Origin: Thraustochytrium aureum
Lineage: Eukaryota
Reading direction: 5' to 3'
Assembly: GCA_012862495.1 (NCBI GenBank)
Contig: BLSG01000092.1
Coordinates: 101,776 to 137,260 of the forward strand
DNA: 35,485 nucleotides
The position numbers and the translations under genes were made by a program. This document shows, in pieces, positions 5,897 to 32,852 of the stretch. The notes under the pieces are model-generated. The model was not told the origin of the DNA and did no database searches. It saw only the letters and a program-made list of their open reading frames with translations. How positions within the stretch are numbered: the stretch's first letter is position 1; each line of letters begins with the position of its first letter.

Positions 5897-6979
5897 TCAG
5901 CTGCCGCCTTCGCCCTCTGGCGCAGCACCCTGCTGCGGCTCAGCCGCGCGCGCCTTTGCCTTGGGTCGCACCTCGGACTCCTTGAGCGGCCGAACAGCCA
6001 AAAAGTTGCGCGCCTCGCGTTCCGGTTGAGGGCCCTCCTCAAACGTGTATGAAACGGCCACCAATAGGCGAGTGCCGTCGGCCGAGAAGTCGATAGAGGA
6101 AACAGAGTTGCCAAACCCTTTGAAAATGGCGGTGCGCCGGTGATTGATGTGGTCCCACACGCACACCGTCGCGTCGCAGCCCCCCGTCGCAAACGTGCCG
6201 TGCACCGGGTGAAACGCGAGGGCGTTCACGGGGTAGATTGCAGTCGCAGACCGGTGGCACTTGAACTTGAAGGGGGTGCGCCGCGCGGCTGCGGGCTCCT
6301 CGCCCGCACCCCGGGGCGCCTCAAAGTAGTCCACCACAACGCGGCCAGCGATGCAGCCAAGCGCGTACCCGGCTCCGTCGGGCGTGAAGCGCACGGCCCT
6401 GGTCTGGTACTGGAGCGAAGAGTCGCGCTCCTCGAGCGGCTTGGACATGTCGCGCACGTCGTACAAGCGCAGCGTGCGCCCGGCGTGCGCGACCAGTATC
6501 TGCCCCGTGTTGTCGCACGCGTCCATCGCAAAAACCTTGTTGGGCTCTGTCGTGGTTGCAGTGGCCCCGTCGCCGACGCGCGGGTCCCAGGTCTTGACAG
6601 CGGCGTCCCAGCCACCGGACACGACGATGCCGCGCTCCGCAAGGAACGCGACGCACCGGACAGCGTCGTTGTGGGTCCCCAGCGGCGCCGTGGTGATGCC
6701 CGCGCCCAGGTCCTGGTAGTGAACAGCGCGGTCCAACCCGCCGCTCACGCCGCGCACCTCTGCGCCCCCGACGCGCCCAAAGCAGCACGTCAGGGCCGCC
6801 GCTGCGTGGTGGTAGCTCCTGAGCGTTGCGCCCGCGTCGCAGTCCACCAAGCTCACGCCGCCGTCCCAGCAGCTCACCAGCGCTTTGCCCGAGTGTTCCC
6901 CATGCGGCTCTGGGGCGGCTCGAGCGCAGGACACGGCCTCGCCAAACGCGACCCGCGTCTCGCCGCCTGGGGCGTCCAT
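5897..6979 (-). CDS. BUB3: Mitotic checkpoint WD40 protein Bub3
   Basis: WD40 protein with SSLQYQTR, GRVVVDYF, FKFKCHR, YPVNALAFHPVHGTFATGG and SYTFEEG. These match Bub3 rather than the Rae1 YDWSKG signature. Likely ATG at 6979 gives ~360 aa. Confidence 0.88.
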   Translation of the reverse strand: MDAPGGETRVAFGEAVSCARAAPEPHGEHSGKALVSCWDGGVSLVDCDAGATLRSYHHAAAALTCCFGRVGGAEVRGVSGGLDRAVHYQDLGAGITTAPLGTHNDAVRCVAFLAERGIVVSGGWDAAVKTWDPRVGDGATATTTEPNKVFAMDACDNTGQILVAHAGRTLRLYDVRDMSKPLEERDSSLQYQTRAVRFTPDGAGYALGCIAGRVVVDYFEAPRGAGEEPAAARRTPFKFKCHRSATAIYPVNALAFHPVHGTFATGGCDATVCVWDHINHRRTAIFKGFGNSVSSIDFSADGTRLLVAVSYTFEEGPQPEREARNFLAVRPLKESEVRPKAKARAAEPQQGAAPEGEGGS

Positions 6980-7245
6980 CCCGTCGCCCGTCGCGAGGAG
7001 GAGCTCTGGCTGATCCGAAACGCGTGTTCCAGCGCCCCGAGCGCGGCCGAGCGAGCCAGCCCGCAAACCACCAGTCTTACAACCGAAAGCCGCCAGATCC
7101 CTCCCCTCCGGCGCCCAACTCCAGCAGCGCCGGGACCGCGGCCTCGAATGCGATCTGCTGCTCCTCGCCGGCCTCCTCGACCTCCGAGTCGCTCGCACTC
7201 GTCCTCTCCGGTGGTCCAAAATCATGAAACGAAGTCATCTTTGTT

Positions 7246-7347
7246 CGTCCTCGTCGACAGAATCCTTCGTTGTACGTCATCATCAAGAGAATCCTTCGTT
7301 ATTCGTCCTCATCGACAGAATCCTTCGTTGTACGTCATCGTAAAGAA
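7246..7347. repeat. 29-bp minisatellite, ~3.5 copies in A-B-A-B' order
   Basis: cgtcctcgtcgacagaatccttcgttgta / cgtcatcatcaagagaatccttcgttatt / cgtcctcatcgacagaatccttcgttgta / cgtcatcgtaaagaa. Confidence 0.85.
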
Positions 7348-8544
7348 CCTACTCTTTGTTCCTCGTACACTGTTTACCAGCCGAATCGCGAAACGGTTCT
7401 ATTTGTTCTTCAGAAAAGCTCCACGACGTACTGATCGTTGTTCTCGTGGAACAGGGCGAACAGGGCAAGGGTGAAACCAAACAACTTGGAGCGGCGGCGG
7501 CGGCGAGGCAGAACCCCATCGCGACGCGGCGGGCGGGCGGGCAGGCGGGCGGGCACGCGGGAGGGCACGCGGGAGGGCGCGCAGGAGCGAGGTCGGCTGC
7601 TGCTCTGGTCTCGTCGCTCGGCTCGCGCTTGCTTGCTTGCTTGGGGTGCGCCGTGCTTCCTNNNNNNNNNNNNNNNNNNNNNNNNNNNNNNNNNNNNNNN
7701 NNNNNNNNNNNNNNNNNNNNNNNNNNNNNNNNNNNNNNNNNNNNNNNNNNNNNNNNNNNNNNNNNNNNNNNNNNNNNNNNNNNNNNNNNNNNNNNNNNNN
7801 NNNNNNNNNNNNNNNNNNNNNNNNNNNNNNNNNNNNNNNNNNNNNNNNNNNNNNNNNNNNNNNNNNNNNNNNNNNNNNNNNNNNNNNNNNNNNNNNNNNN
7901 NNNNNNNNNNNNNNNNNNNNNNNNNNNNNNNNNNNNNNNNNNNNNNNNNNNNNNNNNNNNNNNNNNNNNNNNNNNNNNNNNNNNNNNNNNNNNNNNNNNN
8001 NNNNNNNNNNNNNNNNNNNNNNNNNNNNNNNNNNNNNNNNNNNNNNNNNNNNNNNNNNNNNNNNNNNNNNNNNNNNNNNNNNNNNNNNNNNNNNNNNNNN
8101 NNNNNNNNNNNNNNNNNNNNNNNNNNNNNNNNNNNNNNNNNNNNNNNNNNNNNNNNNNNNNNNNNNNNNNNNNNNNNNNNNNNNNNNNNNNNNNNNNNNN
8201 NNNNNNNNNNNNNNNNNNNNNNNNNNNNNNNNNNNNNNNNNNNNNNNNNNNNNNNNNNNNNNNNNNNNNNNNNNNNNNNNNNNNNNNNNNNNNNNNNNNN
8301 NNNNNNNNNNNNNNNNNNNNNNNNNNNNNNNNNNNNNNNNNNNNNNNNNNNNNNNNNNNNNNNNNNNNNNNNNNNNNNNNNNNNNNNNNNNNNNNNNNNN
8401 NNNNNNNNNNNNNNNNNNNNNNNNNNNNNNNNNNNNNNNNNNNNNNNNNNNNNNNNNNNNNNNNNNNNNNNNNNNNNNNNNNNNNNNNNNNNNNNNNNNN
8501 NNNNNNNNNNNNNNNNNNNNNNNNNNNNNNNNNNNNNNNNNNNN

Positions 8545-11500
8545 GAAGACGGCGGCGACGACGATGACGACGGCAGCGGCGGCAGCTTTGCACTCCCAGG
8601 GGACGCGGAGCCCGCCCTCCTGGCGGACGTCCCGCTCTCGACAGAGTCGACCCAGAACGGGCTGCTTCTTCTGTGGGCTCCAGAACCGTTCAATAAGCGT
8701 TCAGGGGTGACGCGCAGGTGCTTGGACGTGCCCCTGGTTGGCGCCTGGTTCAAGGAGCAATGCCCCAGCGACCTGCCGGTCAAAGTTCGCGTGAGTTACC
8801 AAAAATTGCTCAAAGGGTTTGTGCTCAACCAGCTCCACGCGAAAAAGGGCGAGTCCTCGCAAACCAAGCGGAGCCTTCTCCAGAGCCTCAAAGCGACAAA
8901 GTTCTTTCAGTGCACCGAAATCGACTGGGTCGAGGCCGGCCTCCAAGTGTGCAGGCAGGGGTTCAACATGCTCCAGCTGCTGATCCACAGGAAAAACCTC
9001 GACTTTCTACACCTGGACTACAACTTTAACCTGAAACCGACCAAGACACTGACGACCAAGGAGCGGAAAAAGTCGCGGTTCGGGAACGCGTTCCACCTGC
9101 TCCGCGAGATCCTCCGCCTCACCAAGCTCATCGTGGACGCACACGTCCAATACCGGCTCGGGAACGTCGACATGTTCCAGCTGGCGGACGGGCTCCAGTA
9201 CGCTTTTGCGCACGTCGGCCAGCTGACCGGGATCTACCGGCACAAGTACCGCGCCATGGCCCACATCCGCCGCTGCAAGGACCTCAAGCACCTGATCTAC
9301 TATCGGTTCAACGCGGGCCCGGTGGGCAAGGGGCCCGGCTGCGGGTTCTGGGCGCCCGGGTGGCGCGTCTGGATGTTTTTCCTGCGCGGGATTGTGCCCA
9401 TCCTCGAGATGTGGCTCGGCAACCTTTTGGCCCGCAACTTTGAGGGGCGCCAGTCCCAGTTCGCCGCCAAGCGGGTCACCAAGCAGCGGGTCGAGTCGCA
9501 CTACGACCTACAGTTGCGGGCGGCGGTGGTGCGCGACATCCTCGACATGATGCCCGAGTCTGTGCGCGCGAACAAGACGCAGGCCGTGCTTGCCCACCTC
9601 AGCGAGGCGTGGCGCTGCTACAAGGCCAACGTGAGCTGGAAGGTCCCGGGATGCCGCAGCCCATCGAAAACCTCATCCTGCGGTACGTCAAGGCCAAGGC
9701 GGACTGGTGGGCCAACGTGACCCACTACAACCGCGAACGGATCAAGCGCGGCGCCACCGTGGACAAGACCGTTGTGATCAAAAACCTTGGCCGCCTCACG
9801 CGGCTGTGGCTCAAGGCCGAGCAGGAGCGCCAGCACAACTACCTCGCCGAAGGCCCCTACGTCTCGGCCGAGGAGGCCGTGGCCATCTACACCACGTGCG
9901 TGCACTGGCTAGAGTCGCGCAAGTTTAGCCACATCCCCTTCCCGCCGCTTTCGTACAAGCACGACACCAAGCTGCTCATCCTCGCGCTAGAGCGCTTCAA
10001 GGAGCGCTACACCTTTACGCTGCGCCTGACGGCGCGCGAGCGCGAGGAGCTCGCCCTGGTCGAGCAGGCCTACGACAACCCGCACGAGGCGCTGAGCCGC
10101 ATAAAGCGCCACCTGCTCACGCAGCGCGCGTTCAAGGAGGTCGACATTTCCTTCCTCGACCTCTACAGCCACCTCGTGCCCATCTACAAGGTGGAGCCCT
10201 TGGAAAAGCTCACGGACGCCTACCTCGACCAGTACCTCTGGTACGAGGCCGACAAGCGCCACCTGTTCCCGAACTGGGTCAAGCCCGCCGACTCGGAGCC
10301 GCCCCCGCTGCTCGTATACAAGTGGTGCCAAGGCGCAAACAACCTGCAGGACGTCTGGGCCACCGACCAGGGCCAGTGCGTGGTTATGCTCCAGTCCAAG
10401 CTAGACCGCGTCTACGAAAAAATCGACCTCACGCTGCTCAACCGCCTCCTGCGCCTCATCGTGGACCACAACATCGCCGACTACATCACCGCCAAGAACA
10501 ACGTTCTGCTCTGCTTTAAGGACATGAGCCACACCAACTCGCTCGGGATCGTCCGGGGGCTCAACTTTTCCTCGTTCGTGTTTCAGTTTTACGGGCTCGT
10601 CCTGGATCTGCTCATCCTCGGCCTCGGGCGCGCCTCCGAGCTGGCAGGGCCGCCACAAGTGCCCAACGAGTACCTCTGTTTCAAGGACGTCGCGACGGAG
10701 ACGGGGCACCCGATACGCATGTATACGCGGTACGTGGACAAGGTCTACATTCTGTTCCGGTTCGACCGCGAGGAGAGCCGCGACCTGATCCAGCGCTACC
10801 TCACCGAGCACCCGGACCCGAACACGAAAACGTGGTCGGCTACAACAACAAGCGGTGCTGGCCTCGCGACGCGCGCATGCGCCTCATGAAGCACGACGTC
10901 AACCTTGGCAGGGCGGCGTTCTGGAGCATCAAGAACCGCCTGCCGAGGGCGCTCACCACCGTCGAGTGGTCCGACTCGTTCGTCTCGGTCTACTCGAAGG
11001 ACAACCCCAACCTGCTGTTCAGCATGTGCGGGTTCGAGGTGCGCATCCTGCCAAAGTGCCGCGCCGCCGACGGCGGGCTCGCCGCGCTCAGGGACGGCGT
11101 GTGGTCGCTACAGAACGAGGAGACCAAGGAGCGAACAGCGCAAGCCTACTTGCGTGTCGAGCAGGAGGCCATGGACAGCTTTGAAAACCGGATTCGCCAG
11201 ATCCTCATGAGCTCGGGCAGCACCACGTTCACCAAGGTGGCCAACAAGTGGAACACGACGCTGATCTCGCTCATGGTCTACTACCGCGAGGCGGTCATCC
11301 ACACCCAGGAGCTCCTCGACCTCCTCGTCAGGTGCGAGAACAAGATCATGAACCGCATCAAAATGGGCCTCAACTCGAAGGCGCCCGAGCGCTTCCCGCC
11401 CGTCGTGTTCTTCTGCCCCAAAGAGCTCGGGGGCCTCGGCATGCTCTCCATGGGCAATATCCTCATCCCACAGGCTGACCTGCGCTTTGCCAACCAGACC

Positions 11501-12877
11501 GACGCGGCCCCCTCGCACTTTCGCGCGGGCCTCAACAGCGGCGACAACCCCATTCCCAACCTGTACAGGTACGTCCTGCCGTGGGAGTCCGAGTTTGTGG
11601 ACTCGCAGCGCGTCTGGGCCGAGTACGCGCTCAAGCGCCAGGAGGCCAGCGCGCAAAACCGGCGCCTCACGCTGGAGGACCTCGAGGACTCGTGGGACCG
11701 CGGCGTGCCTCGCATCAACACGCTCTTCAGCAAGGACCGCCACACGCTCGCCTACGACAAGGGCTGGCGCGTGCGCACGCACTTTGAGCAGTTCCAGATC
11801 GCGCGACCCAACCCGTTCTGGTGGACCAACAACCGCATGGACGGCAAGATGTGGAACCTGAGCAACTATCGCACCGACGTCATCCAGGCCCTCGTGGCGT
11901 CGAGGGCATCCTGGAGCACACGCTCTTCAAGGGAACTGGGTTTCCCTCCTGGGAGGGGCTGTTCTGGGAGAAGNNNNNNNNNNNNNNNNNNNNNNNNNNN
12001 NNNNNNNNNNNNNNNNNNNNNNNNNNNNNNNNNNNNNNNNNNNNNNNNNNNNNNNNNNNNNNNNNNNNNNNNNNNNNNNNNNNNNNNNNNNNNNNNNNNN
12101 NNNNNNNNNNNNNNNNNNNNNNNNNNNNNNNNNNNNNNNNNNNNNNNNNNNNNNNNNNNNNNNNNNNNNNNNNNNNNNNNNNNNNNNNNNNNNNNNNNNN
12201 NNNNNNNNNNNNNNNNNNNNNNNNNNNNNNNNNNNNNNNNNNNNNNNNNNNNNNNNNNNNNNNNNNNNNNNNNNNNNNNNNNNNNNNNNNNNNNNNNNNN
12301 NNNNNNNNNNNNNNNNNNNNNNNNNNNNNNNNNNNNNNNNNNNNNNNNNNNNNNNNNNNNNNNNNNNNNNNNNNNNNNNNNNNNNNNNNNNNNNNNNNNN
12401 NNNNNNNNNNNNNNNNNNNNNNNNNNNNNNNNNNNNNNNNNNNNNNNNNNNNNNNNNNNNNNNNNNNNNNNNNNNNNNNNNNNNNNNNNNNNNNNNNNNN
12501 NNNNNNNNNNNNNNNNNNNNNNNNNNNNNNNNNNNNNNNNNNNNNNNNNNNNNNNNNNNNNNNNNNNNNNNNNNNNNNNNNNNNNNNNNNNNNNNNNNNN
12601 NNNNNNNNNCGCTGGCTGCGCTCCCTGGCGCTGGGGTTTACGATTCTCTGGAGGGGTCGATCACTTCTGTCGAGCTGCTCGAGCAGCCCGAGGAGTACGT
12701 CGGCCTCCTGGTGGACGGCAACCAGCGGTTCCTGCGCGACGACCTGATGGTCGTGCACAACAGCGGGTTCGAGACGAGCATGGTGTTCAAGAAGCTTACC
12801 AACGCGCAGCGTGCAGGGCTCAACCAGATCCCCAACCGTCGGTTCACGCTGTGGTGGTCGCCAACCATCAACCGAAG

Positions 12878-12910
<33 letters not shown>

Positions 12911-15248
12911 CCTGACGGGGATCTTTATGCACGGCAAGATCCCGACGCTCAAGATCTCGCTGATTCAGATCTTTCGTGCGCACCTGTGGCAAAAGATTCA
13001 CGAGTCGCTCACGATGGACCTGGCCCAAGTCCTCGACCAGGAGGTCGACGTGCTGGCCATCGAGACGGTGCAGAAGGAGACGATCCACCCGCGCAAGAGC
13101 TACAAGATGAACGTCTCGTGCGCCGACATCCTCCTCCTGGGGACGCACAAGTGGCAGATAAGCAAGCCCGCGCTCCTGCACGACAACCGCGACTCGTACG
13201 AAACCGAGGTGACCTCAAACAAGTTTTGGCTCGACGTCCAGCTGCGCTGGGGCGACTACGACTCGCACGACATCGAGCGGTACTGCCGCGCAAAGTACCT
13301 CGAGTACACCACGGACGGCATGACGCTCTACCCGTCGCCCACGGGCCTCCTCCTGGGCGTCGACCTGGCCTACAACCTGCACGGCGGGTACGGAAACTAT
13401 TTCCCCGGGCTCAAGCCGCTCATGCAGCAGGCGATGGCCAAGATCATGAAAGCCAACCCGGCGCTCTATGTGCTGCGCGAGCGCATCCGCAAGGGCCTCA
13501 GCCTTTTCTCCAGCGAGCCGACCGAGCCGCACCTCTCCAACCAAAACTACGGCGAGCTCTTTTCGAACCAGAACGTGTGGTTCCTGGACGACAGCTCGGT
13601 GTACCGCGTGGTGGTCCACACCACGCTCGAGGGGAACACAACGACCAAGCCAGTGAACGGCGCAATCGTTGTCTTCAACCCGCGCAGCGGGCAGCTCTTC
13701 CTCAAGGTGGTCCACACCTCGTCCTGGAGCGGGCAGAAGCGCCTGTCGCAGCTGGCGCGCTGGAAGACGGCCGAGGAGACGACGGGGCTCGTGCGCTCCC
13801 TGCCCATCGAGGAGCAGCCCAACCAGATCATCGTCACGCGCCGCGGCATGCTCGACCCGCTCGAGACGCAGATGCTCGACTTTCCCTCGATCGTGCTGCG
13901 CTGCAGCGAGCTGCAGCTCCCCTTCTCGGAGCTCTTGTCGCTGGAGCGCATCGGCGACCTTGTCCTCCGCGCCACCGACCCGCAAATGTGCCTCTTCAAC
14001 CTCTACGACGACTGGCTCTCGACCATCTCGAGCTTTACGGCTTTCTCGCGGCTCATCCTGATACTGCGCGCCATGCACGTCGACCTCGACCGGGCCAAGG
14101 TGATCTTGCGNNNNNNNNNNNNNNNNNNNNNNNNNNNNNNNNNNNNNNNNNNNNNNNNNNNNNNNNNNNNNNNNNNNNNNNNNNNNNNNNNNNNNNNNNN
14201 NNNNNNNNNNNNNNNNNNNNNNNNNNNNNNNNNNNNNNNNNNNNNNNNNNNNNNNNNNNNNNNNNNNNNNNNNNNNNNNNNNNNNNNNNNNNNNNNNNNN
14301 NNNNNNNNNNNNNNNNNNNNNNNNNNNNNNNNNNNNNNNNNNNNNNNNNNNNNNNNNNNNNNNNNNNNNNNNNNNNNNNNNNNNNNNNNNNNNNNNNNNN
14401 NNNNNNNNNNNNNNNNNNNNNNNNNNNNNNNNNNNNNNNNNNNNNNNNNNNNNNNNNNNNNNNNNNNNNNNNNNNNNNNNNNNNNNNNNNNNNNNNNNNN
14501 NNNNNNNNNNNNNNNNNNNNNNNNNNNNNNNNNNNNNNNNNNNNNNNNNNNNNNNNNNNNNNNNNNNNNNNNNNNNNNNNNNNNNNNNNNNNNNNNNNNN
14601 NNNNNNNNNNNNNNNNNNNNNNNNNNNNNNNNNNNNNNNNNNNNNNNNNNNNNNNNNNNNNNNNNNNNNNNNNNNNNNNNNNNNNNNNNNNNNNNNNNNN
14701 NNNNNNNNNNNNNNNNNNNNNNNNNNNNNNNNNNNNNNNNNNNNNNNNNNNNNNNNNNNNNNNNNNNNNNNNNNNNNNNNNNNNNNNNNNNNNNNNNNNN
14801 NNNNNNNNNNNNNNNNNNNNNNNNNNNNNNNNNNNNNNNNNNNNNNNNNNNNNNNNNNNNNNNNNNNNNNNNNNNNNNNNNNNNNNNNNNNNNNNNNNNN
14901 NNNNNNNNNNNNNNNNNNNNNNNNNNNNNNNNNNNNNNNNNNNNNNNNNNNNNNNNNNNNNNNNNNNNNNNNNNNNNNNNNNNNNNNNNNNNNNNNNNNN
15001 NNNNNNNNNNNNNNNNNNNNNNNNNNNNNNNNNNNNNNNNNNNNNNNNNNNNNNNNNNNNNNNNNNNNNNNNNNNNNNNNNNNNNTCCGCTTCCCCCGCG
15101 CGCTCGACTTTTCGCTGTCGTACGGCCACCCGCTCGAGTTTTTCCACCCGCAGCACCGCCCGCAGCACTTGCTTCCTTCCTGAGCGGCGGCAGCGGCGAC
15201 ATCGACGAGCTCGCTCCCCAAGAAGACCTCGACAACCCGCTGGCCTAG
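8545..15248 (+). CDS. PRP8: Pre-mRNA splicing factor Prp8 (N-terminus in gap, intein-containing, apparent 1-nt frameshifts)
   Basis: Collinear Prp8 signatures: [83 protein letters not shown] and C-terminal [14 protein letters not shown]. Frame breaks at ~9650, ~10826, ~11895 and ~15168 are each repaired by adding one base. Confidence 0.97.
11974..12761 (+). mobile_element. Intein at the PRP8-a site (only the last ~50 aa visible; the rest is in an N-gap)
   Basis: Non-Prp8 sequence lies between GLFWEK (ends 11973) and SGFE (starts 12762). It is in frame with the downstream extein and reads ...[35 protein letters not shown]. This matches intein blocks F/G with penultimate His, terminal Asn and +1 Ser. 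Confidence 0.92.
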
Positions 15249-19587: not shown

Positions 19588-21953
19588 ATGATCGGGGACG
19601 CGTCGGGTGAGCAAGCGAGGTGGGGGGCCAATGGCGAGGCTGCCAGTGTCTCGATGGACATGAAGGATGCCGAAGCGCCGGACGCTGCTGCTGGAGAGAG
19701 AAGCGGCGGGGAGTCGGCTGGCGCGCCAGGGCTGCGCGAGCTGCTCGGCATCGAAACGTGCGACGTTGTGCTCAACAACGTGGCGATGGAGAAGCTGCTC
19801 CACCCGGTGAGCCTCACGCTGGAGAGGGGCAAGGTCGTCCTTGTGACCGGCCCCAAGATCGAGAAGAAGAAAAGCGGCGCGTCTGTTCTCCTGCAAATCG
19901 TTTCGGGTCGCAAGCAAATGCACGCCGCAAGCGGGGCTGTGACAGGCGAGGCCTTCGCGCTGGGGCACAAGCACAAATTCGACTTGCTGAAGACCAGAAC
20001 ACCAATGCTCCTGAACAAGACCACGCTCTACCGGAAGACGACCCCGGCCGAGACCCTGCAAGCCGCGCTGGTCATGGACGGTCAGTGCGATGCAACGGAG
20101 AGAGTCCGCGCGTTGAAGCTTGCCGAGGACGAATTCGGGCCGATGATGCAGGACGGGTTGCTGCTCAAGAAAGGAGTCCACGTCGGAGACAAAGAGGTGG
20201 ACACAGGCGGCATCACGCGGGGACAAAATTTGTGCTGCCAGTCCATGAGAGAAATCAGCTCCCTGGACCGTCGCAAGCTCGAGTTCGTGGCTCACTTCCT
20301 CCAGGGGCGCCGACCCGACACAATGACCATGGTAGAATCCAAGGAGCTCGTGTACACCGAGATGGTCAAGTACCTCGCGTTCATTCGCGACGTTTGCACT
20401 TCTTCCCGCAGGACGAGTGCGCTAGTTCGCATCAAGGCGCTGCATGGCCGATTCCTGCATCTGTGCGACACCCTCGTCATCCTCTCGGGGCCAAGCGTGG
20501 TTTACATTGGCCCTCCGGGCGCATTTCGGCGCCATGTGGACAACGTCCTGCTGTTGCCGGTGCCGGACGCTTTTAGCGCGACCGAGTTCGTTATTGATCA
20601 CACCGACAAGATGCTACACCCGGACTGCGACCTTGATGCGATCGAGGCAAAGTTCTGGGAGACGAGCGACGCGCAAAGCATCGCGCAAGAGGCCACGGCG
20701 CGGGCTGCCCAATTGGAAACCTTGGAGCCCAACGACCCCCAAACGTTTCGAGAGGGGTTCGAGCTGTGGTGGATGCAGGCCATCGAGGTATTCTGGCGCA
20801 CGCATCGCAATTACGTGCGTACGCCGGGTCTCACTACGCTACGTTGGCTGCTCTATGTTACGTTCGCGGTGATGACGGGGATTATCGCCATGTCTCCGAG
20901 CGCGCTCGCTGCGAGCGACCGCATCTGGTTGCTCATCGCAGGCTTCGACTTTACTGTTGCAGGTAGGTGTCTCCCTTTGCTTGGCGTGGCTTGCTTGGCG
21001 TGGCTTGGCGTGGCTTGCTTGGGGGTGGCGTGGCTTGCTTGGGGTGGCGTGGCTTGCTTGGGGGTGCTTGCTTTGCTTGGAGGTGGCGTGGCTTGGCTTG
21101 GCGCGGCGTGGCTTGCTTCGCTTGCGGATGTTTTTTTCGCTCGCCCGTTGCCGTCTCTAACATCCATCTCCTCTCGCTGCGTTTCGACCGCTATGGCAGC
21201 CAGCTTATTCGGCATGTACGCACTGCGCTTGGAACGCAAGACGCTCTTCCGCGAGTGCCAAAACAGGCGCTTGTACTTGTCCGCCTGGCACGTGGGCCAC
21301 TTCCTCGGCTCTGTGCTTGGCGTGCTGTACATAAGCATCGTGCCGGGGCTCCTCTTCTTTTACTTGATGCAGCTTGACACGTTCTCGCGCTCTTGGGAAG
21401 CAGTGGCCGGGTTCGTTGCGACCTACTACTTTATGCTATTGCTCTGCGAGGCGCTCTGGACCATGGTCGCGTTTGCCATTCCGCAAAAGAAGCGGAGCAC
21501 TGTAATCGCCTCGTTCTTTGCCCTGGCGTTCGTCCTCGGCCAGGGCGTCTTCACCAAGCTGGCCAACTTGCCAGCCAACCGCTATGTGATGTTTGTCACG
21601 ATTTTCCGGCCCGCCATGACATCGTTCTTCGCCAGGCAGTTCGCTGGCGTCGAGCCCGTGTACTACCTGCCGCAGGTGTGGCAGGCCGATGTGGATGCGT
21701 GCCAGCTTCATCCGACCGACTCGAGAAACTGGACCTCGCCGCAGGTGCTGGGATGCCTCAATGTTACCGTGTGGAATGGGAAATGTCCTGTTGAGCCGGC
21801 GAACGGTCTTCGGTGGACTGGCGACGAAGTTCTGAGTGCCTTCAATTCAAGTCGAATGGCGTGCTTGCGATGGAGCTCATCACCATTCTCATCATCATCT
21901 TCATACGAATCATCACCTACTTGATCGTGCGATGGCAAATCCGCAGAATCTAG
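19588..21953 (+). CDS. ABCG-like half transporter with degenerate nucleotide-binding domain (two exons)
   Basis: NBD-then-TMD order. LLHPVSLTLERGKVVLVTGP, LCDTLVILSGPSVVYIGP and ERKTLFRECQN..Y match ABCG landmarks. Intron at 20963-21199. The last TM helix (LAMELITILIIIFIRIITYLIVRW...*, stop 21951-21953) is reached by a 1-nt shift at ~21843. Start codon is uncertain (19588 or 19654). Confidence 0.75.
20963..21199 (+). other. Spliceosomal GT-AG intron, 237 nt, filled with a (GCTTG/GCGTG)n repeat
   Basis: Donor G|GTAGGT, CTAAC branch-like motif at ~21157, pyrimidine tract, acceptor GGCAG|. Removal keeps the frame and gives FDFTVAASLFGMYALRLERK. Confidence 0.85.
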
Positions 21954-22305: not shown

Positions 22306-25300
22306 TCAACTTGTGGCCGGGGATGCTTGCGCCGCCACCAGCATCTGCACCAACCTCGTTAGCTCGGTAACTTGCTTAGTAAGGGCTTGGACGTCCTCTG
22401 CGGTTCCCTGCTCATTGGAACGCTTCTTGGCGCCAACTGCGCGCTCTTCGTCAACAACGTCACCATTCCGCTCGCTATCGGGGCGATAACTGGAGTGCAG
22501 AGCAGCCGGCTTCTTCCAATGCTTGATGCCGTCCTTGCCTGTGAGCAGCACATGCGGGTGCCAATACTCGATGTTGAAGGCGTTCTTCTTGGTTAGTTTG
22601 CCATAGACTGCGTGTCTGAGGCTCTCTTCGATTCCCTGCGTGATAATCTCCTCCCAGAGCCTGTCGCTCGCCGACCTGCAGTTTGGGTAGACGTCCGTCA
22701 CGACGGCAATGAGAAGGTTGAGCGTGATCGTGGCAAAGAGAGTAAAGAAAACCGACAGAAAGGCCCCGAGCGACCCTCCCTCGTCGACTTGTTCCATGAT
22801 GCCCCAGGTCTCCACAAAGGGCGTGAGGAAGAGCGACTCAAAGGTGGCCAACGTCGTCGAAAAGCCGGTACATTGGCCCCAAATCCGACATGGAACGTCA
22901 GGGCGAGCAAAAAGTAGGCGGAAGCCACCACCATGAGGTATATCAGAACCGCTGGGTGCGACATGGTGTTTAGCAGCGCCACGACGACAGGGCCGATGCT
23001 CGGGATCGTCCGAGCCGCATTGAGCAGCGGCAACATCGAGATGAAAAAGTAGACTGCAAAGGTGCGGCGCTCTACCTCCAAGAGTCGGTGCACGTGGCTG
23101 AGCTTGGTGACCTCGCTCGTCACGTAGTCGCGGGCCACGCTTCGTGTGACCTCGTAGATATACATGTCCAGCACGAGGATACCCACGAGCAACAGCGCGG
23201 TGAGCCAATCGGCAGGTTTGCCGCGGTTGCGGTTCCTTCTGGAGAGCCAGCCGCGAAGCTTGGAAAAGCAAAACGCCATCACGATCACAGTGAGGACGAG
23301 CTGAAACGTGCGCGAGGGGGGGAAGCGCCCATACCCGAGCCGAAAGGGCAAAACCCTCACCGTAATCGTGGGCACCCCAACAAATGACGAGACAAAGTTG
23401 ACCTGGGCCACCCCGTACACCTCAAGGAAGGGGTTGTAGAGGTTGAACTCCAGGTCGAGTTGCTGCACGCCGCCGTTTTCAAGCAAGCTCTGCGAAAAGG
23501 CGTCCATATCGGTCAAGTTTGACGCTCGCTTCACCACAAACGTGGTCACGTTTGGGCTGAGGTCCATGTCCACCTCTGCGTCAACGTCGGCGTAGTCGTC
23601 GCGAAGTGCGTAGTGCGTGTGCGCCTCGAGCGTCAGGCCGCCAAACACCAGGTTGCGCCCCAGGAGTGTCGTGCGGTTGTGCTTGAGCGCGAATTTGCCC
23701 TCCACCAAGCCGTGCTCTAGCCAGCCGAGAAACGAAGCAGGGTCCTCGATCGCCTGTGTGGACTCGCTCAGGTGGTTTGACATGCGCTCGGCCCATTCGC
23801 GCTCTGCGGCGAGGTTGTAGTCGGGCGCGAGCTGGACCACAAAGATAAAGCTCAGGATCATGGCGAGCAAGAGCGAGGTTTCGCGCACAAACATTTTGAT
23901 CGCGCACTTTCTGCGCCAGGCGCGCACTTTGGCGCTCTCATTGAGGACGGCAACCATGCGCGAGGCATGCGTGCGCTCCAACTCGGCCTTTTCAAGCAGC
24001 TCATCGAGTTCACGCGTGCTTGCGTGGACCTGCTTGTCGTCGTTGCGGTGAAACCCGAAAAAGTTGGTCAGCCTGCTGTCAGCCCTTCCCATGAGCTTTA
24101 GCCGCTTGCCGAGGATGTGCCCCCCCCCTCGGTGCTTTGCGTTGCCTTGGCTGAGGCCCGCCTTGGCCTCACCAGGCCCATCGAGTGCGCCGGGCGGGGC
24201 GGCCTGGTGGCCGCCAGAGGCAGCCTCGTTCACGTCAACGCCCTCCTCGTCCGTAAAGTACGCCAGGCCAGATCCTTGGCGCCCAGACGCAAAGCGCGGG
24301 GCATTTCCGGGNNNNNNNNNNNNNNNNNNNNNNNNNNNNNNNNNNNNNNNNNNNNNNNNNNNNNNNNNNNNNNNNNNNNNNNNNNNNNNNNNNNNNNNNN
24401 NNNNNNNNNNNNNNNNNNNNNNNNNNNNNNNNNNNNNNNNNNNNNNNNNNNNNNNNNNNNNNNNNNNNNNNNNNNNNNNNNNNNNNNNNNNNNNNNNNNN
24501 NNNNNNNNNNNNNNNNNNNNNNNNNNNNNNNNNNNNNNNNNNNNNNNNNNNNNNNNNNNNNNNNNNNNNNNNNNNNNNNNNNNNNNNNNNNNNNNGATCC
24601 ATGTCGAAGAGGACGCGTCGGCTGATCTGCTCCTGCAGGTATTGCACCTTCTCCGTCAGCTCGATATGCCTGAACAGAGCGCGAACGTAGGGACTAAACA
24701 TGCTGCCCCGCGTCCGGTTCCCGTCGGCCTGCATTGGGTTTCCGCCGTGCTTGATGAGCATCGCCACAACAGCGATATTGTTGGAGCGCACTGCCAGCGA
24801 GAGGGGCGAATAGTCGCCCAACTTGAGGTCGCTCAGGTTGTCGGTGACGTGGCGCGCTGCTTCGGAGGCGCCAATTTGCGTCCCGTCCGAGTTGGCGCTC
24901 ATGAGACTAAAGCGCGGCGTGCTGGCGTCGCTGCGACCCGCCGAGCCGCGCGGGGGACCGAGGCGTCTCAGAGAGCCCCGTTGCTGGAGCCGTGAGCTGG
25001 GCGTTTGAAAGGTCCAGCGGATTGATCTTGGCAAAGGTCCGCTTGGAGACCGAAGCCTGGACGAAACTGCGAAGCAAGCCGATGGGGCGGATCCCAGGCG
25101 CTGGGTTTGACTTTGACGCGTCGCGCGGGCTCGTCCTGCTTCGCGGCTCCTCGGTGGGCGAGAATGCCTCGCCCTTGCTTAGAAACCCGAGAATGTTCGA
25201 GTTGAGGTCGACAATCTCGTTCGTCTGGTGCTCCTGCTGCAGCCGCTCGGTGAGGTATCTGCACACCTCGTCGTGGCCTTGCATTGCCGCATGGTGGAGC

Positions 25301-28300
25301 GGCGTGAACCCCATATTGTCGTTGACGAGGATGCGCGCAGAGTTTTGCACGAGTTCCTGGCAGAGACGAAGGTTGCCCAGGTAGGCGCACATAGAGAGCG
25401 GAGTGAGCCCGTTGATGTCGCGGATCTCCACGTTGGCCCCCAGGTGAAGCAGCCGGCGCGCAGTCTCAAAGTGGCCGCGCTTGATTGCGATGTACAGCGG
25501 AGTGTGCCCAAACTCGTCGATCGCGTTCAAGTTGGCGCCAGCGTGCATGCTTGTCCGCTTGCTGAGGAGGATGTTGACAGAGTTGATCTGCCCGCGGCGC
25601 ACAGCCGCAAAGAGGTACTGGTTGAACAATTTGCGCCGGATGTGCTTGAGCTGCCGGAAGGCAAAGTTGCGCTTTGCTTGGCCATCAAGGGAGGTTCGCC
25701 GCGGCGCTACTGCCAAAAGCTGCGAAGGGTCCTCGTCGGGCTCCTCCGCGATCGTCTCCCGTGCACGCCGAGGCTGCAGCTGGGTGCCACGGCCTTGCCC
25801 CGAGCGGGCCGGTTCCAGCGCCGAGTCCACTGTCTGCAGTTGGGGCGACTTGGGCGGGGGCGGGATCACCTCCCATCCAAAGTGCAGGATAGCTTTCAGC
25901 GTCTCTTCTGCGCCGAGCAAGAGCTGCGCCTTTTCATGCTTGTCCAAGACGTCGTACGGAACGAGCGACGAATTTAGCTTGAGGCCCTTTTTGATGTTGC
26001 GCGCCGGCGCGTACCTGAACCCTTGGCGGATCTTCTCGCTCGCCCACACCTCGTGGCTGTTTGCCGCCAACATGTTGACAAGTTTGGTCAGCTCGGGAGG
26101 AACGGGCACGGCAGACGTTTGGATAGTGGTGCACTCTGGGAGCTCGGGGCGCCAAGCGATCTCGGCGTACTTTGCCCCTGAGGGGCCTCCGCGGCCCTCT
26201 TCGCCCCCGCTCGGCCCGCTGCCGCTCCGCCGCCGTGGCGTCGAGCTGTTGTTAGTGTTGGCCATGAGCATAGCCACGACGCTCTCCCGCTTTTGCTTGT
26301 TGAGGTCAGCGACCTTGGTCAGCAGACTGGTCGGCGAAGCCTCGCCGCGGTCCTTTTGCTCCTCTTCCAAGACAAGGGGGCTTGCTGGAGCAGGGACGCC
26401 AGGGAGTGCGCCTAGCGGCGGGGGCGACATCGAGGCGCGCTGGCCGGGCCGTTGCAGCTCGTAGCCGAGCGCCACGATCACCTTGATGGTCTCGCTGGCC
26501 ATGTCGAGGTTGTACTTGGTGCCCTCGTACGAAAGCGAGCTGAACGGGAGCAAATGCGGGTGGAGCTTGGCCTCTTCGTCCTTGTCGCGCCCGTACGCCC
26601 ACCCTTCGTCAATCTTGGACTTGGCCCACACATTGTGATTGTTTCGAGCGATCATCGTGCACAACTGCGCCACGCTGTTCGCGATGACCACCGCCGAGGT
26701 GCTGATCGGATTGGGCAGAAACCGGTACCCCTCGAGCTCGCGCGTGTCGGTTGCAGGCGTTGCGCAGCACCTGTCCCGGTTGCACTCGCAGTGCGTGTTG
26801 ATGCTCCCGCAAAACGTCCAGCCCTTGTCAGGGTTGTGCTCGCGGTCCAGCGGCGAGAGGTGCTTGCGACACGACTGCTCGCCATGGCACCGGTCCTTGC
26901 AGACGAGACAGACGCTTTGGCCGCAAAACTCGCACTTGTACAAGAACTGCGTCACCGTGTTGTTGTAGCTCGCAAAAGAAAACGTGCACGTCTCGGGGTG
27001 CTCCATGCGCTGCGTCATTTCCACGAGGGTGTCGTCGATCGTGATACCGTTCTCGTCGGCAAAGTTGAGGATGCTCTCGCACGCCTCCACGTCGCCCATC
27101 AATCAAGGCGTGCAAGANNNNNNNNNNNNNNNNNNNNNNNNNNNNNNNNNNNNNNNNNNNNNNNNNNNNNNNNNNNNNNNNNNNNNNNNNNNNNNNNNNN
27201 NNNNNNNNNNNNNNNNNNNNNNNNNNNNNNNNNNNNNNNNNNNNNNNNNNNNNNNNNNNNNNNNNNNNNNNNNNNNNNNNNNNNNNNNNNNNNNNNNNNN
27301 NNNNNNNNNNNNNNNNNNNNNNNNNNNNNNNNNNNNNNNNNNNNNNNNNNNNNNNNNNNNNNNNNNNNNNNNNNNNNNNNNNNNNNNNNNNNNNNNNNNN
27401 NNNAGGTCGAGCTCGGTGTCGTTGGTGGTCCGCACGGGGAACGTTGACGCGTATTTTGTGCCGCAAGCCCTTTTTTCAGGACCGCGCTCAGCAAGAGCTT
27501 TTTCTTGTGCCCGTTGGAGACGGGCTGGTGGCTGTCCAGCACTGCGCGAACCACTTCGGACTTGCCATTGAAGGCAGCAAGGTGCAGGAATGTGACGCCA
27601 GAGTTGGTGATGGAGTTGATCGGAAGCTGCGCCACGTTTTCGTACCCGTCGAGGCAGCGGCTCCAGTCCACGCCTGCAAAGCAACCCGACTTTGCCGCAA
27701 AGTGCAGGCTGTTCCAGGCCTCGCTATCGCGCTGTGCGAGCAGGGCGAGGCGGTCTTCAACGTCCCGCTGCGAGCGAAGAATGACCTCGACTGTGGCGGC
27801 GTGCTCTTGCGAGTCGCTCATGCAGGCAAACATCACGGCGGTCTTTCCGTACGTCGACTGGGTCTGAAGCAGCGACATTGAGGGCTCGTAGGAAAGCAGC
27901 ATTTCGACGCAGTCGCAGTCTCCGTCTCGCGCGGCGTACATGAGTGCCGTTTTTCGAGACTGGCGCGTCTGGCCGTACAAGAGCTCGCGCTGCTGCTCTT
28001 CCGTGGCGGCATCTAGAATCATCTCGATCATCTGCAGGCGCACGTGCCGTTTCTTGCACGAAATAGCCAGAATGACGGCGTTCTCGTCCTTTTTCGTTCG
28101 CGCGCAAAGGTCGAGGGCGCCTTTGGCATGCTCAAGGAGCAGCTCGAGGATGTCCACATTGCCAGTCTCGCAGCAGGCGTGCAAGGCGTTTTTGCAGCTC
28201 CATGAGCACAGCTCGTTGATCGAGCCCTGCGCGATGAGGGCGTCCAGCTTGGCCCGGTCAAACGTCATCGCGGAGAACACGAGCGACTCGTACAGGTCGT

Positions 28301-29063
28301 CGACGTCTTCGAAGATCGCGTCTGTCCAGCCAACTGCGCGCCGTGTGAGCTGCAGGCTGCCGTTGATGGTCAGTTTGCGGTCCTCCAACGAGCCGATTTC
28401 GGGCCCGTCCGAGCGCACGACGTGGATCTTCTCAAACTCGAATTTCTTCAGCGCGCCCGCGACGCTGTCGTCTTGGATGCCACGGCAGCCGTCCTCCACG
28501 AAAAAGACTTCGACCCCTTGCATCAGGATCTTGGCGTCCAGCACGGTGTATTGGACGCAAAAGTCTGTGGCCAGTCCGACGGCGTAGATTTCGGTGACTT
28601 TGTTCTCCTCCAGAAGGTCGCGCATCTCCGTGAGCTGCGAGCTCCCGTTGTCCTTGAATACTGAATAGCTGTCGCGTTGCGGGTTGCAGCCCGCGTAGGT
28701 CCAGATGTCGCTGGTTTCGGTCAGCAGGTCTTTGTGCAGCTCGGCGCCGCGAGTCCCTTGCACGCAGTGGTCGGGCCACATGATCTGTGCGTCGCCGGTC
28801 GTAGGGAGGTGGATAACCTGGAACACGGCTGACCCGGGGTTGTTGGTCCTGAACGAGCAGTGGTTGCACGGGTGCCAGTCCAAACACATGTAAATGTAGT
28901 CGAACGCCTTGCCGCGCAGCCGGTTGATCACGGGGATGATCGCCTCTGCGTTCGGCACGGCCAGGCTGCCGTCAATAAAGTCATTCTGCACGTCGATGAT
29001 CAGCAGGGCGCGTACAGGCTCCCTCTGCTGGGCTCCTTTGCCGTTCTGTGGCAAGCCGGCCAT
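22306..29063 (-). CDS. Large multidomain cation channel: nicotinamidase-like + ankyrin repeats + UBR-like Zn finger + 2 RyR domains + ankyrin repeats + polycystin (PKD2/TRPP-like) channel; PKDRR-like
   Basis: PncA motifs IIDVQNDF, LDWHP, WPDHCVQGT and GLATDFCV. Ankyrins (KTALMYAA, HTPLYIA, FTPLHHAA). Cys/His finger (YKCEFC..VCLVCKDRCH..HCEC). Two RyR domains (IARNNHNVWAKSKIDEGWAYG..HPHLLPF; LAANSHEVWASEKIRQGFRY..LVPYDVL). PKD-type FNLYNP and S6 LNLLIAVVTDVY. Joined across two gaps and about four apparent frameshifts, so the single-gene model is inferred. Confidence 0.8.
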
Positions 29064-29803: not shown

Positions 29804-31774
29804 TCAGACCTCCCCCAAATTCAACGTGCGCCCCGACGCGCCGGATACAGGCCGAAATGTGAAGCGAGGCGTCACGAAACGAAAAATCACGCTCGAGAAA
29901 CGGTTGTACCGCGATGACGGTGGGGGGGCAGGGCTTTCGCGCGGAGACCCCGGCCACGCAACAGGGTTTGCCGCAGGCGCGCGATGCTGATTGTCACGGC
30001 CGTACCCGCTACCTTCAACCTGCCCAGGTGCCGCACTACGCCCGAGCGTCGAGGATGAGGTAATGGACATGCTCGAAAAGGAGTTGTGCGACATGCGCCG
30101 TGCCACCATGACCGCGGTGGGTGGTGGAGCGAGTCCATCGGCAAACTTGCCTTTGCCACCCCCGTAGGGGTTGGAGGAAGCGAGCTCCAGCGCCTCCAGC
30201 GCGGCCATCTCCTTCATTCTTTTCCGCGTGACCAGCAGAACAGCCCCAGCAAGGATGACGCAGACGCCGCCGATGCTCCCCAATCCGATGTACAGATAGT
30301 TGAGGTCATCGCTGCTTCCTTCCGGTTTGGGGTCAGTGTCTGTACCGCCGCCGCCACCAGCATCTCCGCCATCTCCGCCGCTGCCGCCGCCTCCTGGCTC
30401 GCTCGGTCCTGGCGTTGGCTGCAACGGGGAAACTGTCGGTGAAGCGGTCGGCCTTGACGTTATGGGCAGGCGGCTGACAAACATTGACACCACTCCAGGT
30501 GCCTCTGGCGCGTTCTCTCCCTCCCACATCGAAATGCAGCCGACGCCCGAAACGCATGCCAAATCGACGTCAAGCGACTTGAGACCGTTGTGGCCGCCGA
30601 AAGCCTGGGGAGTGCTCCAATTGAGACCTTTGTTCGCCGAAACCGAGAAGGCAGGGGCGTATCCGCCATTCGAGTCGATTTCCCACACCAGCACGCAGTA
30701 CGTATTGTCAAAGCAGGCGATTGCAGACTCGTCCTCGTGAAGTCCGCCAAGCTGAAGCGCGAGGCGTTGCAGCTGCCCGAACGTCTGGCCCCCGTCGGCA
30801 GAATGAGCATACTCGACAAACGGGCGTGACGCTTGGCCAGAAGCAATGTCTTTTGTCCTAGCATCGCATGAAACCGTGCACGCGGACCCATCTTCCACGC
30901 AAGCCACGTCAACCTCGTCGGCCAAGAGCAGGGTGCCGCTTCCTTGCCCACTGAGGTGTTCTGCTGAGCGCTTCAAAGCAGTTGGAGTCGAAAATGTTGC
31001 GCCACGATCTGTTGACCGCACTGTGGCCACGAAAGTCGTGCCATCGCCCGAGTTTGAGGCGTCGCCGTTCACGACAATACCAATCAAACACACAGCGCCG
31101 TACTCGGCGCAAGCAATGCGCGCCTTGTGCACGGCGAAACCGCCGCCTTGCGTCGTCACAGGCTGCGGGGCCACAGCGAAGGTTCGAGCACCGTTGACGG
31201 AGCGCAGCAGAAGCAGCCTCTTGTCCGGAAGCGTTGTGCTCACGACGACGAGGCATGAGAATGCGTCTTTCTGGGGGCCCACCACGCCAGGAATAGCAAA
31301 ACAGGCGATATCGGGCATCCAGAACTTGCCGTGGTCGGCGGCAGCAACGGGAGCGCGCTCTGGGGCGGTCCACTGCTTGCCTGCATTCACCGAGCGCGCC
31401 GTGAATATTTCCTGGTCGTTCTTTGGGCTCCACACGGCGCCGCAGAGTCGCTCGGTGGCGGTCTCAAAGCACGACAGTTTTGGCAACTCGTTGTACACGA
31501 CGTCTGAGGCGAGCACGGAGGCAGCCGACCAGGTCACGCCAAAGTCGTTCGAGGTGCCAAACATGATGTTGCGGTTCGTGGACGATTCCGAAGCCTTCTC
31601 AAACAGCGCGACGCATTCCCCGTTGGAAAAGCAATGGAGCACGGGCTCCTCCAACGTGAGCGTGTTGGGGCCCTCGCGAAACACAATATCGCTCCCCGAG
31701 AAGCCTTCCACGGACCGCCAGAGCCCCGTGGCAGCCACAATCGCGCCAACCAGCGATGCGGCCCGAGGCCTCAT
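29804..31774 (-). CDS. Type I membrane protein with Cys-rich BNR/Asp-box repeats (sialidase-like propeller)
   Basis: Signal peptide MRPRAASLVGAIVAATGLW. Asp boxes SNDFGVTW, SVNAGKQW, SVNGARTF, STDRGATF, SADGGQTF and SANKGLNW. Pro/Thr stalk PTASPTVSP, TM helix YLYIGLGSIGGVCVILAGAVLLV, then a cytoplasmic tail. Confidence 0.85.
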   Translation of the reverse strand: MRPRAASLVGAIVAATGLWRSVEGFSGSDIVFREGPNTLTLEEPVLHCFSNGECVALFEKASESSTNRNIMFGTSNDFGVTWSAASVLASDVVYNELPKLSCFETATERLCGAVWSPKNDQEIFTARSVNAGKQWTAPERAPVAAADHGKFWMPDIACFAIPGVVGPQKDAFSCLVVVSTTLPDKRLLLLRSVNGARTFAVAPQPVTTQGGGFAVHKARIACAEYGAVCLIGIVVNGDASNSGDGTTFVATVRSTDRGATFSTPTALKRSAEHLSGQGSGTLLLADEVDVACVEDGSACTVSCDARTKDIASGQASRPFVEYAHSADGGQTFGQLQRLALQLGGLHEDESAIACFDNTYCVLVWEIDSNGGYAPAFSVSANKGLNWSTPQAFGGHNGLKSLDVDLACVSGVGCISMWEGENAPEAPGVVSMFVSRLPITSRPTASPTVSPLQPTPGPSEPGGGGSGGDGGDAGGGGGTDTDPKPEGSSDDLNYLYIGLGSIGGVCVILAGAVLLVTRKRMKEMAALEALELASSNPYGGGKGKFADGLAPPPTAVMVARRMSHNSFSSMSITSSSTLGRSAAPGQVEGSGYGRDNQHRAPAANPVAWPGSPRESPAPPPSSRYNRFSSVIFRFVTPRFTFRPVSGASGRTLNLGEV

Positions 31775-32852
31775 CGTCAGGTGCCTTCTGCTCTCGCGTC
31801 CGCGCCTTCCGCCTCGGATGCGCGACGGCGCGGCCAGAGACGAAAGGGAACTGCCTGTGTGGCCTACGCGTTCGGCGACCGCGCACACCCTGCATGCGCT
31901 TGGCGTGGGCGAGTGCCGTCGGCCCATGCCAGCCACTGGCATGCCAAAGAGAGAGAGCTGCGGCGTCGTGAAATCTCAAACGAGCGCCCTCTGGCACTCG
32001 CTGGTTGCTGGGCGAGGCGTGGAGGCCTGCCCGAGTAGCCGCGTTGTCGGTCGGTCCTGCCTTGCGGGTCGAAATGAAGGAGCGTGGGCCTTCTGGAAAG
32101 CAGGACGAGGTGCCACCGCGTACGGTACTCTGCCANNNNNNNNNNNNNNNNNNNNNNNNNNNNNNNNNNNNNNNNNNNNNNNNNNNNNNNNNNNNNNNNN
32201 NNNNNNNNNNNNNNNNNNNNNNNNNNNNNNNNNNNNNNNNNNNNNNNNNNNNNNNNNNNNNNNNNNNNNNNNNNNNNNNNNNNNNNNNNNNNNNNNNNNN
32301 NNNNNNNNNNNNNNNNNNNNNNNNNNNNNNNNNNNNNNNNNNNNNNNNNNNNNNNNNNNNNNNNNNNNNNNNNNNNNNNNNNNNNNNNNNNNNNNNNNNA
32401 GTAGGAGCCTACTCGAGCTACTCTCGAGTAAGCAGCTGAGTATGTCCGCCAGAAGACCTGGGTGCTCCGTTCACGGTTGGTCTGGCGTGCGACCAATTTG
32501 TGCACGTGGACGCGTTGATTGATTGAGCACCGGTCCAAAAGACTGCAGGCTCGGAGCAACCGGTTTCGCCGTCAATGAACCGTTCAGTGTGGATTTGGCG
32601 TTTCCACGTCGCGAGGCCGAATGGCACGGGGAGTCAACACTGGCCGAAACGAGCTTCGCGCAAGACGCACTGGTTTGTGTTTCTGGTCGGCTCGGCACGC
32701 TGGCGAAGAAGCGAGCGACGAACTTCAAGAAAGAAGAAAAGCAAACCAAACGACACGCGATTTACCACCTTCTGTTCTGATTCTCATGAGGCTGAGGTCG
32801 AGCCCCTTCGCGGTTCGCAGGAACGACTTTCGCTCGCGACGAAGAAAACAGT

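Follow-up and report, generated by a model that had tools for sequence, protein, structure and literature searches.

A site-a PRP8 intein, likely a mini-intein, in a likely labyrinthulomycete host

The window, by which we mean the whole stretch of 35,485 nucleotides that was analyzed, carries on its plus strand a Prp8 gene whose coding sequence is interrupted by foreign in-frame sequence, with a Bub3-like gene on one side and a large channel gene on the other. Its sequence is broken by 12 N gaps, three of them inside Prp8, which spans from before 8587 to about 15240 and whose 5' end falls within the N gap at 7662-8544. The features on which the argument turns are the following:

5900..6979, minus strand: Bub3-like WD40 gene, divergent from Prp8, without taxonomic placement
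8587..11973, plus strand: visible part of the Prp8 N-extein, with PROCN, RRM, U5-binding and the start of the U6-binding region
11974..12609, no strand given: gap of 636 N, the place of the N-terminal splicing region, of a linker and of the expected block B, of which only the first 10 codons are read
11974..12003, plus strand: Ala(-1), Cys1 and block A, N in the window and taken from loose contig ends of runs X1, X2 and X3
12612..12761, plus strand: visible 50 aa of the intein tail, comprising a 16-aa linker, block F and block G
12762..14108, plus strand: Prp8 C-extein, opening with Ser+1 (SGFETSM), Pfam U6-snRNA_bdg and PRP8_domainIV
15103..15174, plus strand: C-terminal end of Prp8, past the gap at 14111-15085, from tblastn against Podila residues 2868-2891
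22330..29033, minus strand: isochorismatase-ankyrin-RyR-ankyrin-channel gene (Pfam), with a homologue in Hondaea fermentalgiana (GBG29206.1), gaps and frame changes

The Prp8 N-extein contains a PROCN domain matched at E 5e-181 (Pfam) and, with Podila Prp8 as the tblastn query, shows 73-75% identity; the C-extein, made up of the U6-binding region and the RNase H-like domain IV, aligns from residue 1578 of yeast Prp8 and residue 1506 of human Prp8. The protein is divergent, at 69-80% identity to all sequences compared, and its frame changes three times, near 9650, 10820 and 11894. Both features speak for a decayed second copy of Prp8 with a dead intein, a reading that we nevertheless consider very improbable: the frame change near 11894, the one covered by the read check, is an assembly error, corrected by one additional base in all three runs whose contigs span it; the neighboring channel gene has frame changes likewise; the three Prp8 segments measured (358, 340 and 449 codons) are free of stops; and the catalytic Cys1, the penultimate His, the terminal Asn and Ser+1 of the intein are all intact.

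Several further elements of the window may be recorded here. The presumed shared promoter region of the Bub3-like gene and Prp8, which separates the two, contains direct repeats, imperfect and about 65 bases long (7225-7345; core GAATCCTTCGTT). An ABC transporter gene contains a likely in-frame intron at 20964-21200 (plus strand) that opens with GTAGGT, includes serial GGCTTG-like repeats and CTAAC, and closes with CAG. The genes at 29807-31975 (minus strand) and 33294-35474 (plus strand), which point away from each other, encode two predicted membrane proteins that resemble each other and have BNR-like repeats (the Pfam check covered the 29807-31975 protein only) and Pro/Thr/Ser-rich stalks.

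As the preliminary description had it, Prp8 stops at GLFWEK, which reads to 11973, and restarts at SGFETSM from 12762. The insert begins at 11974 as described there; its end, which had been set at 12764, belongs at 12761, since 12762-12764 encodes Ser+1 of the C-extein. The claim of about 50 foreign in-frame codons is matched by a run of 50 stop-free codons at 12612-12761, in frame with SGFETSM, which starts LAALPG and ends VVHN at 12761. Block F runs from ITSVE at 12660, and the His and Asn of block G occupy 12756-12758 and 12759-12761. Cys1, a block-B His, a terminal Asn and Cys, Ser or Thr at +1 are the features common to inteins (Green et al., 2019; PMC6805012), and the residue required at +1 is present here as Ser.

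The other end of the insert is seen in read contigs from four public runs (two studies), each of which holds at least half of the sampled words, out of nine runs. Ala followed by Cys1 had been named as the mark of block A to look for, and past FWEK the contigs of three of the four runs read Ala-Cys-Phe-Ser-Arg-Asp-Thr-Arg-Leu-Leu, with Cys at block A position 1 directly after Ala; the fourth run is without coverage there. Contigs of three runs also join blocks F and G to the C-extein. The insert is in frame on either side of the gap, with the C-extein in the window tail and with the N-extein in the read contigs. Contigs of X2 and X3 extend some 330-355 letters into the insert. No contig of the four runs spans 11974-12609, and none covers 12610-12690; block B (TxxH), which in relatives lies at residues 61-76, would fall here within the 636-N gap.

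We attach almost no weight to a reading of the insert as intron or as artefact of the assembly, even though the gap starts exactly at the junction and three of the runs (X1, X2 and X4) are RNA by guess only; among the contigs of the runs so guessed both junctions are present, and the insert may be retained in mRNA. The contigs that join block A to the N-extein and blocks F and G to the C-extein are independent, and what is visible of the insert has homologues among Prp8 inteins of solved structure. The insert starts TG and ends AC, rather than with the GT-AG or AT-AC of a spliceosomal intron, and a joint that would mark an empty allele or a spliced form appears in none of the four runs, whose contigs drop rare variants.

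When the tail is compared with the PDB at E<=10, only three entries match, all of them Prp8-labelled intein chains (6MX6, 6OWU and 6MWY, which we take to be Cryptococcus Prp8 mini-inteins), with E values of 7e-4 to 3.5e-3 and the best of them aligned through His-Asn-Ser. The last 30 residues of the tail agree at 20 positions with the PRP8-a terminus that scores best in the set of representative matches, as against a maximum of 10 and a mean of 4.3 identities in 2000 shuffles of this terminus; the likeness is therefore not due to chance. The search with a Hint-type profile that had been suggested gave a lesser result, in that a match to Pfam Hom_end_hint was obtained but is weak taken alone (E 0.06, below the cut-off). 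With both junctions, blocks A, F and G, the PDB matches and the shuffle test all bearing out the original reading, the PRP8 insert is a genuine intein.

The site, too, was correctly named as PRP8-a, judging by the FWEKA / SGFE junctions, the alignment and the spacing to site d. In the alignment with yeast Prp8, Ser+1 falls on residue 1579, the start of the C-extein is that given for the Salpingoeca site-A intein (PMC5784728), and the +1 position of site d, which is empty, lies 87 residues downstream of site a, the same distance as that of Monier et al. (PMC3749507). Site a itself is located in the 1585-loop linker of Prp8 (Green et al., 2019; PMC6805012).

At site d, the +1 residue in the window's Prp8 is Ala, as it is in P0004; it is Cys in 9 of the 11 fragments covering the position. 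In the window's Prp8, TLF-S-KDR holds a Ser that 16 of 114 fragments share, and FFCPKE is present as well; a Prp8 fragment with three inteins, P0003, has inteins at both of these positions. All three states, TLF-S-KDR, FFCPKE and the site-d Ala, which lie within 12762-13025 and 11400-11740 of the window, may reflect former inteins since lost, or they may be chance.

The preliminary description likened the insert to the fungal PRP8-a inteins of Cryptococcus and Aspergillus. The likeness stands as regards the site-a type but not as regards this particular kind, a non-Dikarya “Cys-Phe” group of site-a inteins being closer; by the similarity of its ends, the window's intein is assigned to that group. 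Its tail is identical at up to 23 of 34 ungapped positions to Cys-Phe site-a inteins, compared with 13-15 of 34 for four Dikarya-type tails, and Dikarya-type site-a inteins among the matches start Cys-Leu, whereas the window's starts Cys-Phe. The presumed Cryptococcus mini-inteins resemble it in site a, Cys1, His-Asn and Ser+1, with block F/G aligned over 35 residues (E 7e-4), but differ in having a more distant tail. Block A has 8 of 9 residues in common with P0133, P0134 and P0136 and also, by eye, with the Mortierella elongata intein (PMC5784728 supplement). The site-A inteins of M. elongata, Salpingoeca rosetta (a 201-aa mini-intein) and Acytostelium subglobosum show by eye the same start and tail pattern (PMC5784728), while that of Batrachochytrium dendrobatidis was compared by its start only (PMC5784728). 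The pattern common to the non-Dikarya group and the window is a block F/G of the form Y-x-G-x-x-V-D-G-N-(Q/K)-R-F-L-R-x-D-x-x-V-x-H-N, with Ser+1. The hosts of these non-Dikarya PRP8-a inteins are fungi, a choanoflagellate and an amoebozoan; the host here, by contrast, is a likely stramenopile.

Wider searches give the same family picture. Searching with the tail found four proteins among 20 candidates, each a Prp8 that carries a Cys-Phe site-a intein. One of the four falls in a cluster with Podila horticola Prp8 (KAF9311715.1), and the intein of that cluster is identical to the window's at 22 of 34 tail positions. A profile was built from five Cys-Phe site-a sequences. Among its best 150 matches, 23 had a Prp8 match to the reference, the 15 termini nearest to the window's were all PRP8-a (the profile itself having been built from site-a inteins), and the best terminus from another site reached 16/30, as against 20/30 for site a. 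RNA polymerase, topoisomerase II, PIF1 and DnaB proteins were among the top non-Prp8 matches to this profile. In all, about 20 relatives of the window's intein are found in public data, many of them metagenomic.

A scan of metagenomes for the junction motif returned 26 loci, three of which are genuine Prp8 inteins (L001, L006 and L023) and the other 23 chance matches; none of the three stems from the window's host. The L001 intein is 586 aa long; L006 and L023 are one organism, with a 381-aa site-a intein. L023 (3864-5006, minus strand, and downstream), which comes from a metagenome of freshwater type, has a further long intein in its Prp8, at site d. P0003 (ENA, 1959 aa), one of whose three inteins lies at site a and has 314 aa and a decayed endonuclease, is by our impression diatom-like, and L023 green-alga-like; in the extein tree described below, L023 falls near the plants and P0003 does not. 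The Kickxella alabastrina Prp8 records (P0174 / P0292 / P0296) reach up to about 4700 aa and hold several inteins.

At face value the insert measures 785 nt, or about 262 aa. The gap estimate can be calibrated at two places, the Prp8 3' gap, which is 17-38 nt shorter than homologue length predicts, and the channel-gene gap, which is about 190 nt longer, and from these two calibrations the insert would be roughly 195-275 aa. Cys-Phe relatives with both ends (n=19) range from 175 to 698 aa. A pattern search finds the endonuclease motif in 8 of the 19, all at 314 aa and above, and a homing (LAGLIDADG) intein of this group, with blocks C, D, E and H, has about 366 aa or more. A basic tail precedes block F in 7 of the 8 relatives with the endonuclease motif, its pattern matching 2 of the 11 others as well; the window's 16 residues before block F are unlike this endonuclease-associated tail, the regular expression for which is also without a match in several long relatives.

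Based on the two gap calibrations and on the 16 residues adjoining the gap, in a stretch without contig coverage, the window's intein is likely a mini-intein or a decayed one, without an intact endonuclease. A full-length mobile intein, its LAGLIDADG endonuclease hidden in an underestimated gap, seems to us quite unlikely. Many of the relatives are long, and all contigs break inside the insert and so leave its length free; the gap would, however, have to exceed its estimate by more than 300 nt, when the calibrations run from -38 to +190 nt, and the residues before block F point the other way. At 0.94, GC3 in blocks F and G (34 codons) is close to the 0.92-0.93 of the extein on either side, an agreement that fits long residence of the intein in this genome.

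That the neighboring genes point to a stramenopile-like host was a further claim of the preliminary description, and it probably holds, on the strength of the channel gene, which lies 8-15 kb downstream of Prp8 across scaffold gaps. From 3754 candidate homologues of this gene, 5 passed and 4 are close; Hondaea fermentalgiana GBG29206.1, from a labyrinthulomycete (PMC10710043), is the only one of the close homologues that bears a species name, and an MMETSP transcript is among the others. The channel gene matches the Hondaea homologue along its whole length and domain order, at 61, 54 and 51% identity over three segments. The closest match, P0127 (JGI; 65/58/49%), stands above Hondaea in two of the three. 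In combining RyR and channel domains the gene also resembles the oomycete PKDRR proteins; a term search of the PKDRR paper (PMC7399828) met with no labyrinthulomycetes and no isochorismatase domain, and that paper was for this reason not used for host placement. The isochorismatase-ankyrin-RyR-channel gene may be a labyrinthulomycete-type variant.

The host was also to be confirmed from Prp8 and Bub3. Bub3 yielded no taxonomic placement, the ESM Atlas returning generic WD40/Bub3 clusters for the Bub3-like gene and no usable match for the channel gene. Prp8 was informative in that an extein tree (22 rows, 1162 columns; named taxa Podila, Kickxella and three plants, with no named stramenopile Prp8) places the window's sequence outside Podila, Kickxella and the plants, on a long branch with P0004 and with supports of 60-87. 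P0177, P0136, P0137 and P0241 (fewer than 200 aligned columns; 4 of 27 rows) were left out of this tree, as was P0163. P0004 (JGI) is a metagenomic Prp8 with a 175-aa PRP8-a mini-intein identical to the window's at 22 of 34 tail positions; its extein is sister to the window's Prp8 (UFBoot 87), a pairing that could be long-branch attraction. A search for the host's own junction fragment, in the range of 110-350 aa, gave 174 matches among 556 candidates, and the window's own fragment is not among the matches listed (120 of the 174).

It is unlikely, in our estimation, that the intein is real and the host not a stramenopile, either because the Prp8 contigs are misjoined or foreign or because the channel gene misleads. 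The 12 N gaps leave room for such an error. A named homologue is at hand for one gene only, the ESM Atlas gives a usable taxon for neither Bub3 nor the channel gene, and among the same 120 listed matches no Prp8 fragment exceeds 85% identity save for short partials (89% over 57% of the query). On the other side, the 11 coding segments measured all have high GC (0.59-0.69) and GC3 (0.69-0.93), the window's Prp8 does not group with the named fungi or plants, and the channel gene follows the whole domain order of its Hondaea counterpart. With one neighboring gene and the exclusion from fungi and plants as its grounds, the assignment of the host to the labyrinthulomycetes is, on sequence evidence, quite probable.

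Taking these lines together, we favor the reading, with a probability of about 0.68, that site a of the window's PRP8 is occupied by an in-frame intein, that this is likely a mini-intein (about 195-275 residues) lacking a working endonuclease, and that the host is likely a labyrinthulomycete stramenopile. Its excision would follow class 1 intein chemistry. The whole precursor would be translated, whereupon Cys1 would attack the carbonyl of Ala(-1), the N-extein would be transferred to Ser+1, and the terminal Asn, aided by the penultimate His, would cyclize; an O-N shift would then join FWEKA to SGFE in the 1585-loop region, as needed for Prp8 function. As to history, an endonuclease-bearing ancestor of the Cys-Phe group may have homed into this conserved site, probably from another lineage, the endonuclease then being lost from the lineage of the window's intein, which would persist because an essential gene would be broken by any imprecise loss of it. 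In view of the near-identical ends found in fungi, a choanoflagellate, an amoebozoan and the window's host, passage from one lineage to another is plausible, 43 residues being comparable for this purpose. Two scans of viral contigs produced 36 and 2 pattern matches, none of them confirmed; since their reach is limited to close relatives, they are silent on a viral vehicle.

PRP8 inteins are mostly fungal by description and have been pursued as antifungal targets. The published range is wider: Green et al. (2018; PMC5784728) list 104 Prp8 inteins from fungi, Amoebozoa, Choanoflagellida and Chlorophyta (with Capsaspora in the supplement), and Gallot-Lavallee et al. (2023; PMC10710043) describe five inteins, one of them at site a, in the Prp8 of Anaeramoeba ignava BMAN. 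Anaeramoeba, set beside the present case by description rather than by sequence, is alike in having site a occupied outside Opisthokonta and Amoebozoa and differs as a metamonad host with many inteins. The surprise about host range that the preliminary description voiced is accordingly moderate. A new host supergroup is likely, in line with the wider host range that it suggested, but publications had already put site-a inteins beyond the fungi, namely in Anaeramoeba (Metamonada), an amoebozoan and a choanoflagellate. Inteins, too, are on record from stramenopile genomes, namely plastid DnaB inteins and one in Hyaloperonospora SF3b1, like Prp8 a spliceosomal protein (PMC5784728), those of Hondaea in a viral-like DNA polymerase (PMC10710043) and a viral-relic intein in Phytophthora ramorum (Goodwin et al., 2006; PMC1635734). 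These differ from the window's in that none lies in Prp8, two being in viral-like genes and one set in plastids. The literature on stramenopile, protist, diatom and thraustochytrid inteins, as far as it lies outside subscription, for the most part, yielded no stramenopile Prp8 intein, nor did the titles and abstract openings of the greater part of the PRP8-intein literature since 2019.

The site, the chemistry and the group are thus already known, as is the occupation of site a in three supergroups (Opisthokonta, Amoebozoa and Metamonada), and the window's intein adds no new site, chemistry or architecture. What it probably adds is a new host for a known kind of selfish element, likely a thraustochytrid-like protist, and with it the first stramenopile on record as carrying a PRP8 intein. 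The broader statement, that among PRP8 inteins this one is the first for stramenopiles and for SAR as a whole and that it belongs to an unrecognized spread of Cys-Phe site-a inteins across distant protist supergroups, we regard as having slightly better than even odds. P0004, with its sister extein and mini-intein, and P0003, with its three inteins, may be further SAR cases.

A labyrinthulomycete site-a intein would add a further eukaryotic supergroup to the hosts of this element, and, if P0004 and P0003 are SAR, site a would count as a homing target throughout eukaryotes and not only in fungi. Comparison of intein with extein trees would then allow a clean choice between ancient inheritance and movement across supergroups. 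Should the host be a thraustochytrid relative amenable to culture, conditional Prp8 splicing would become testable in a non-fungal cell.
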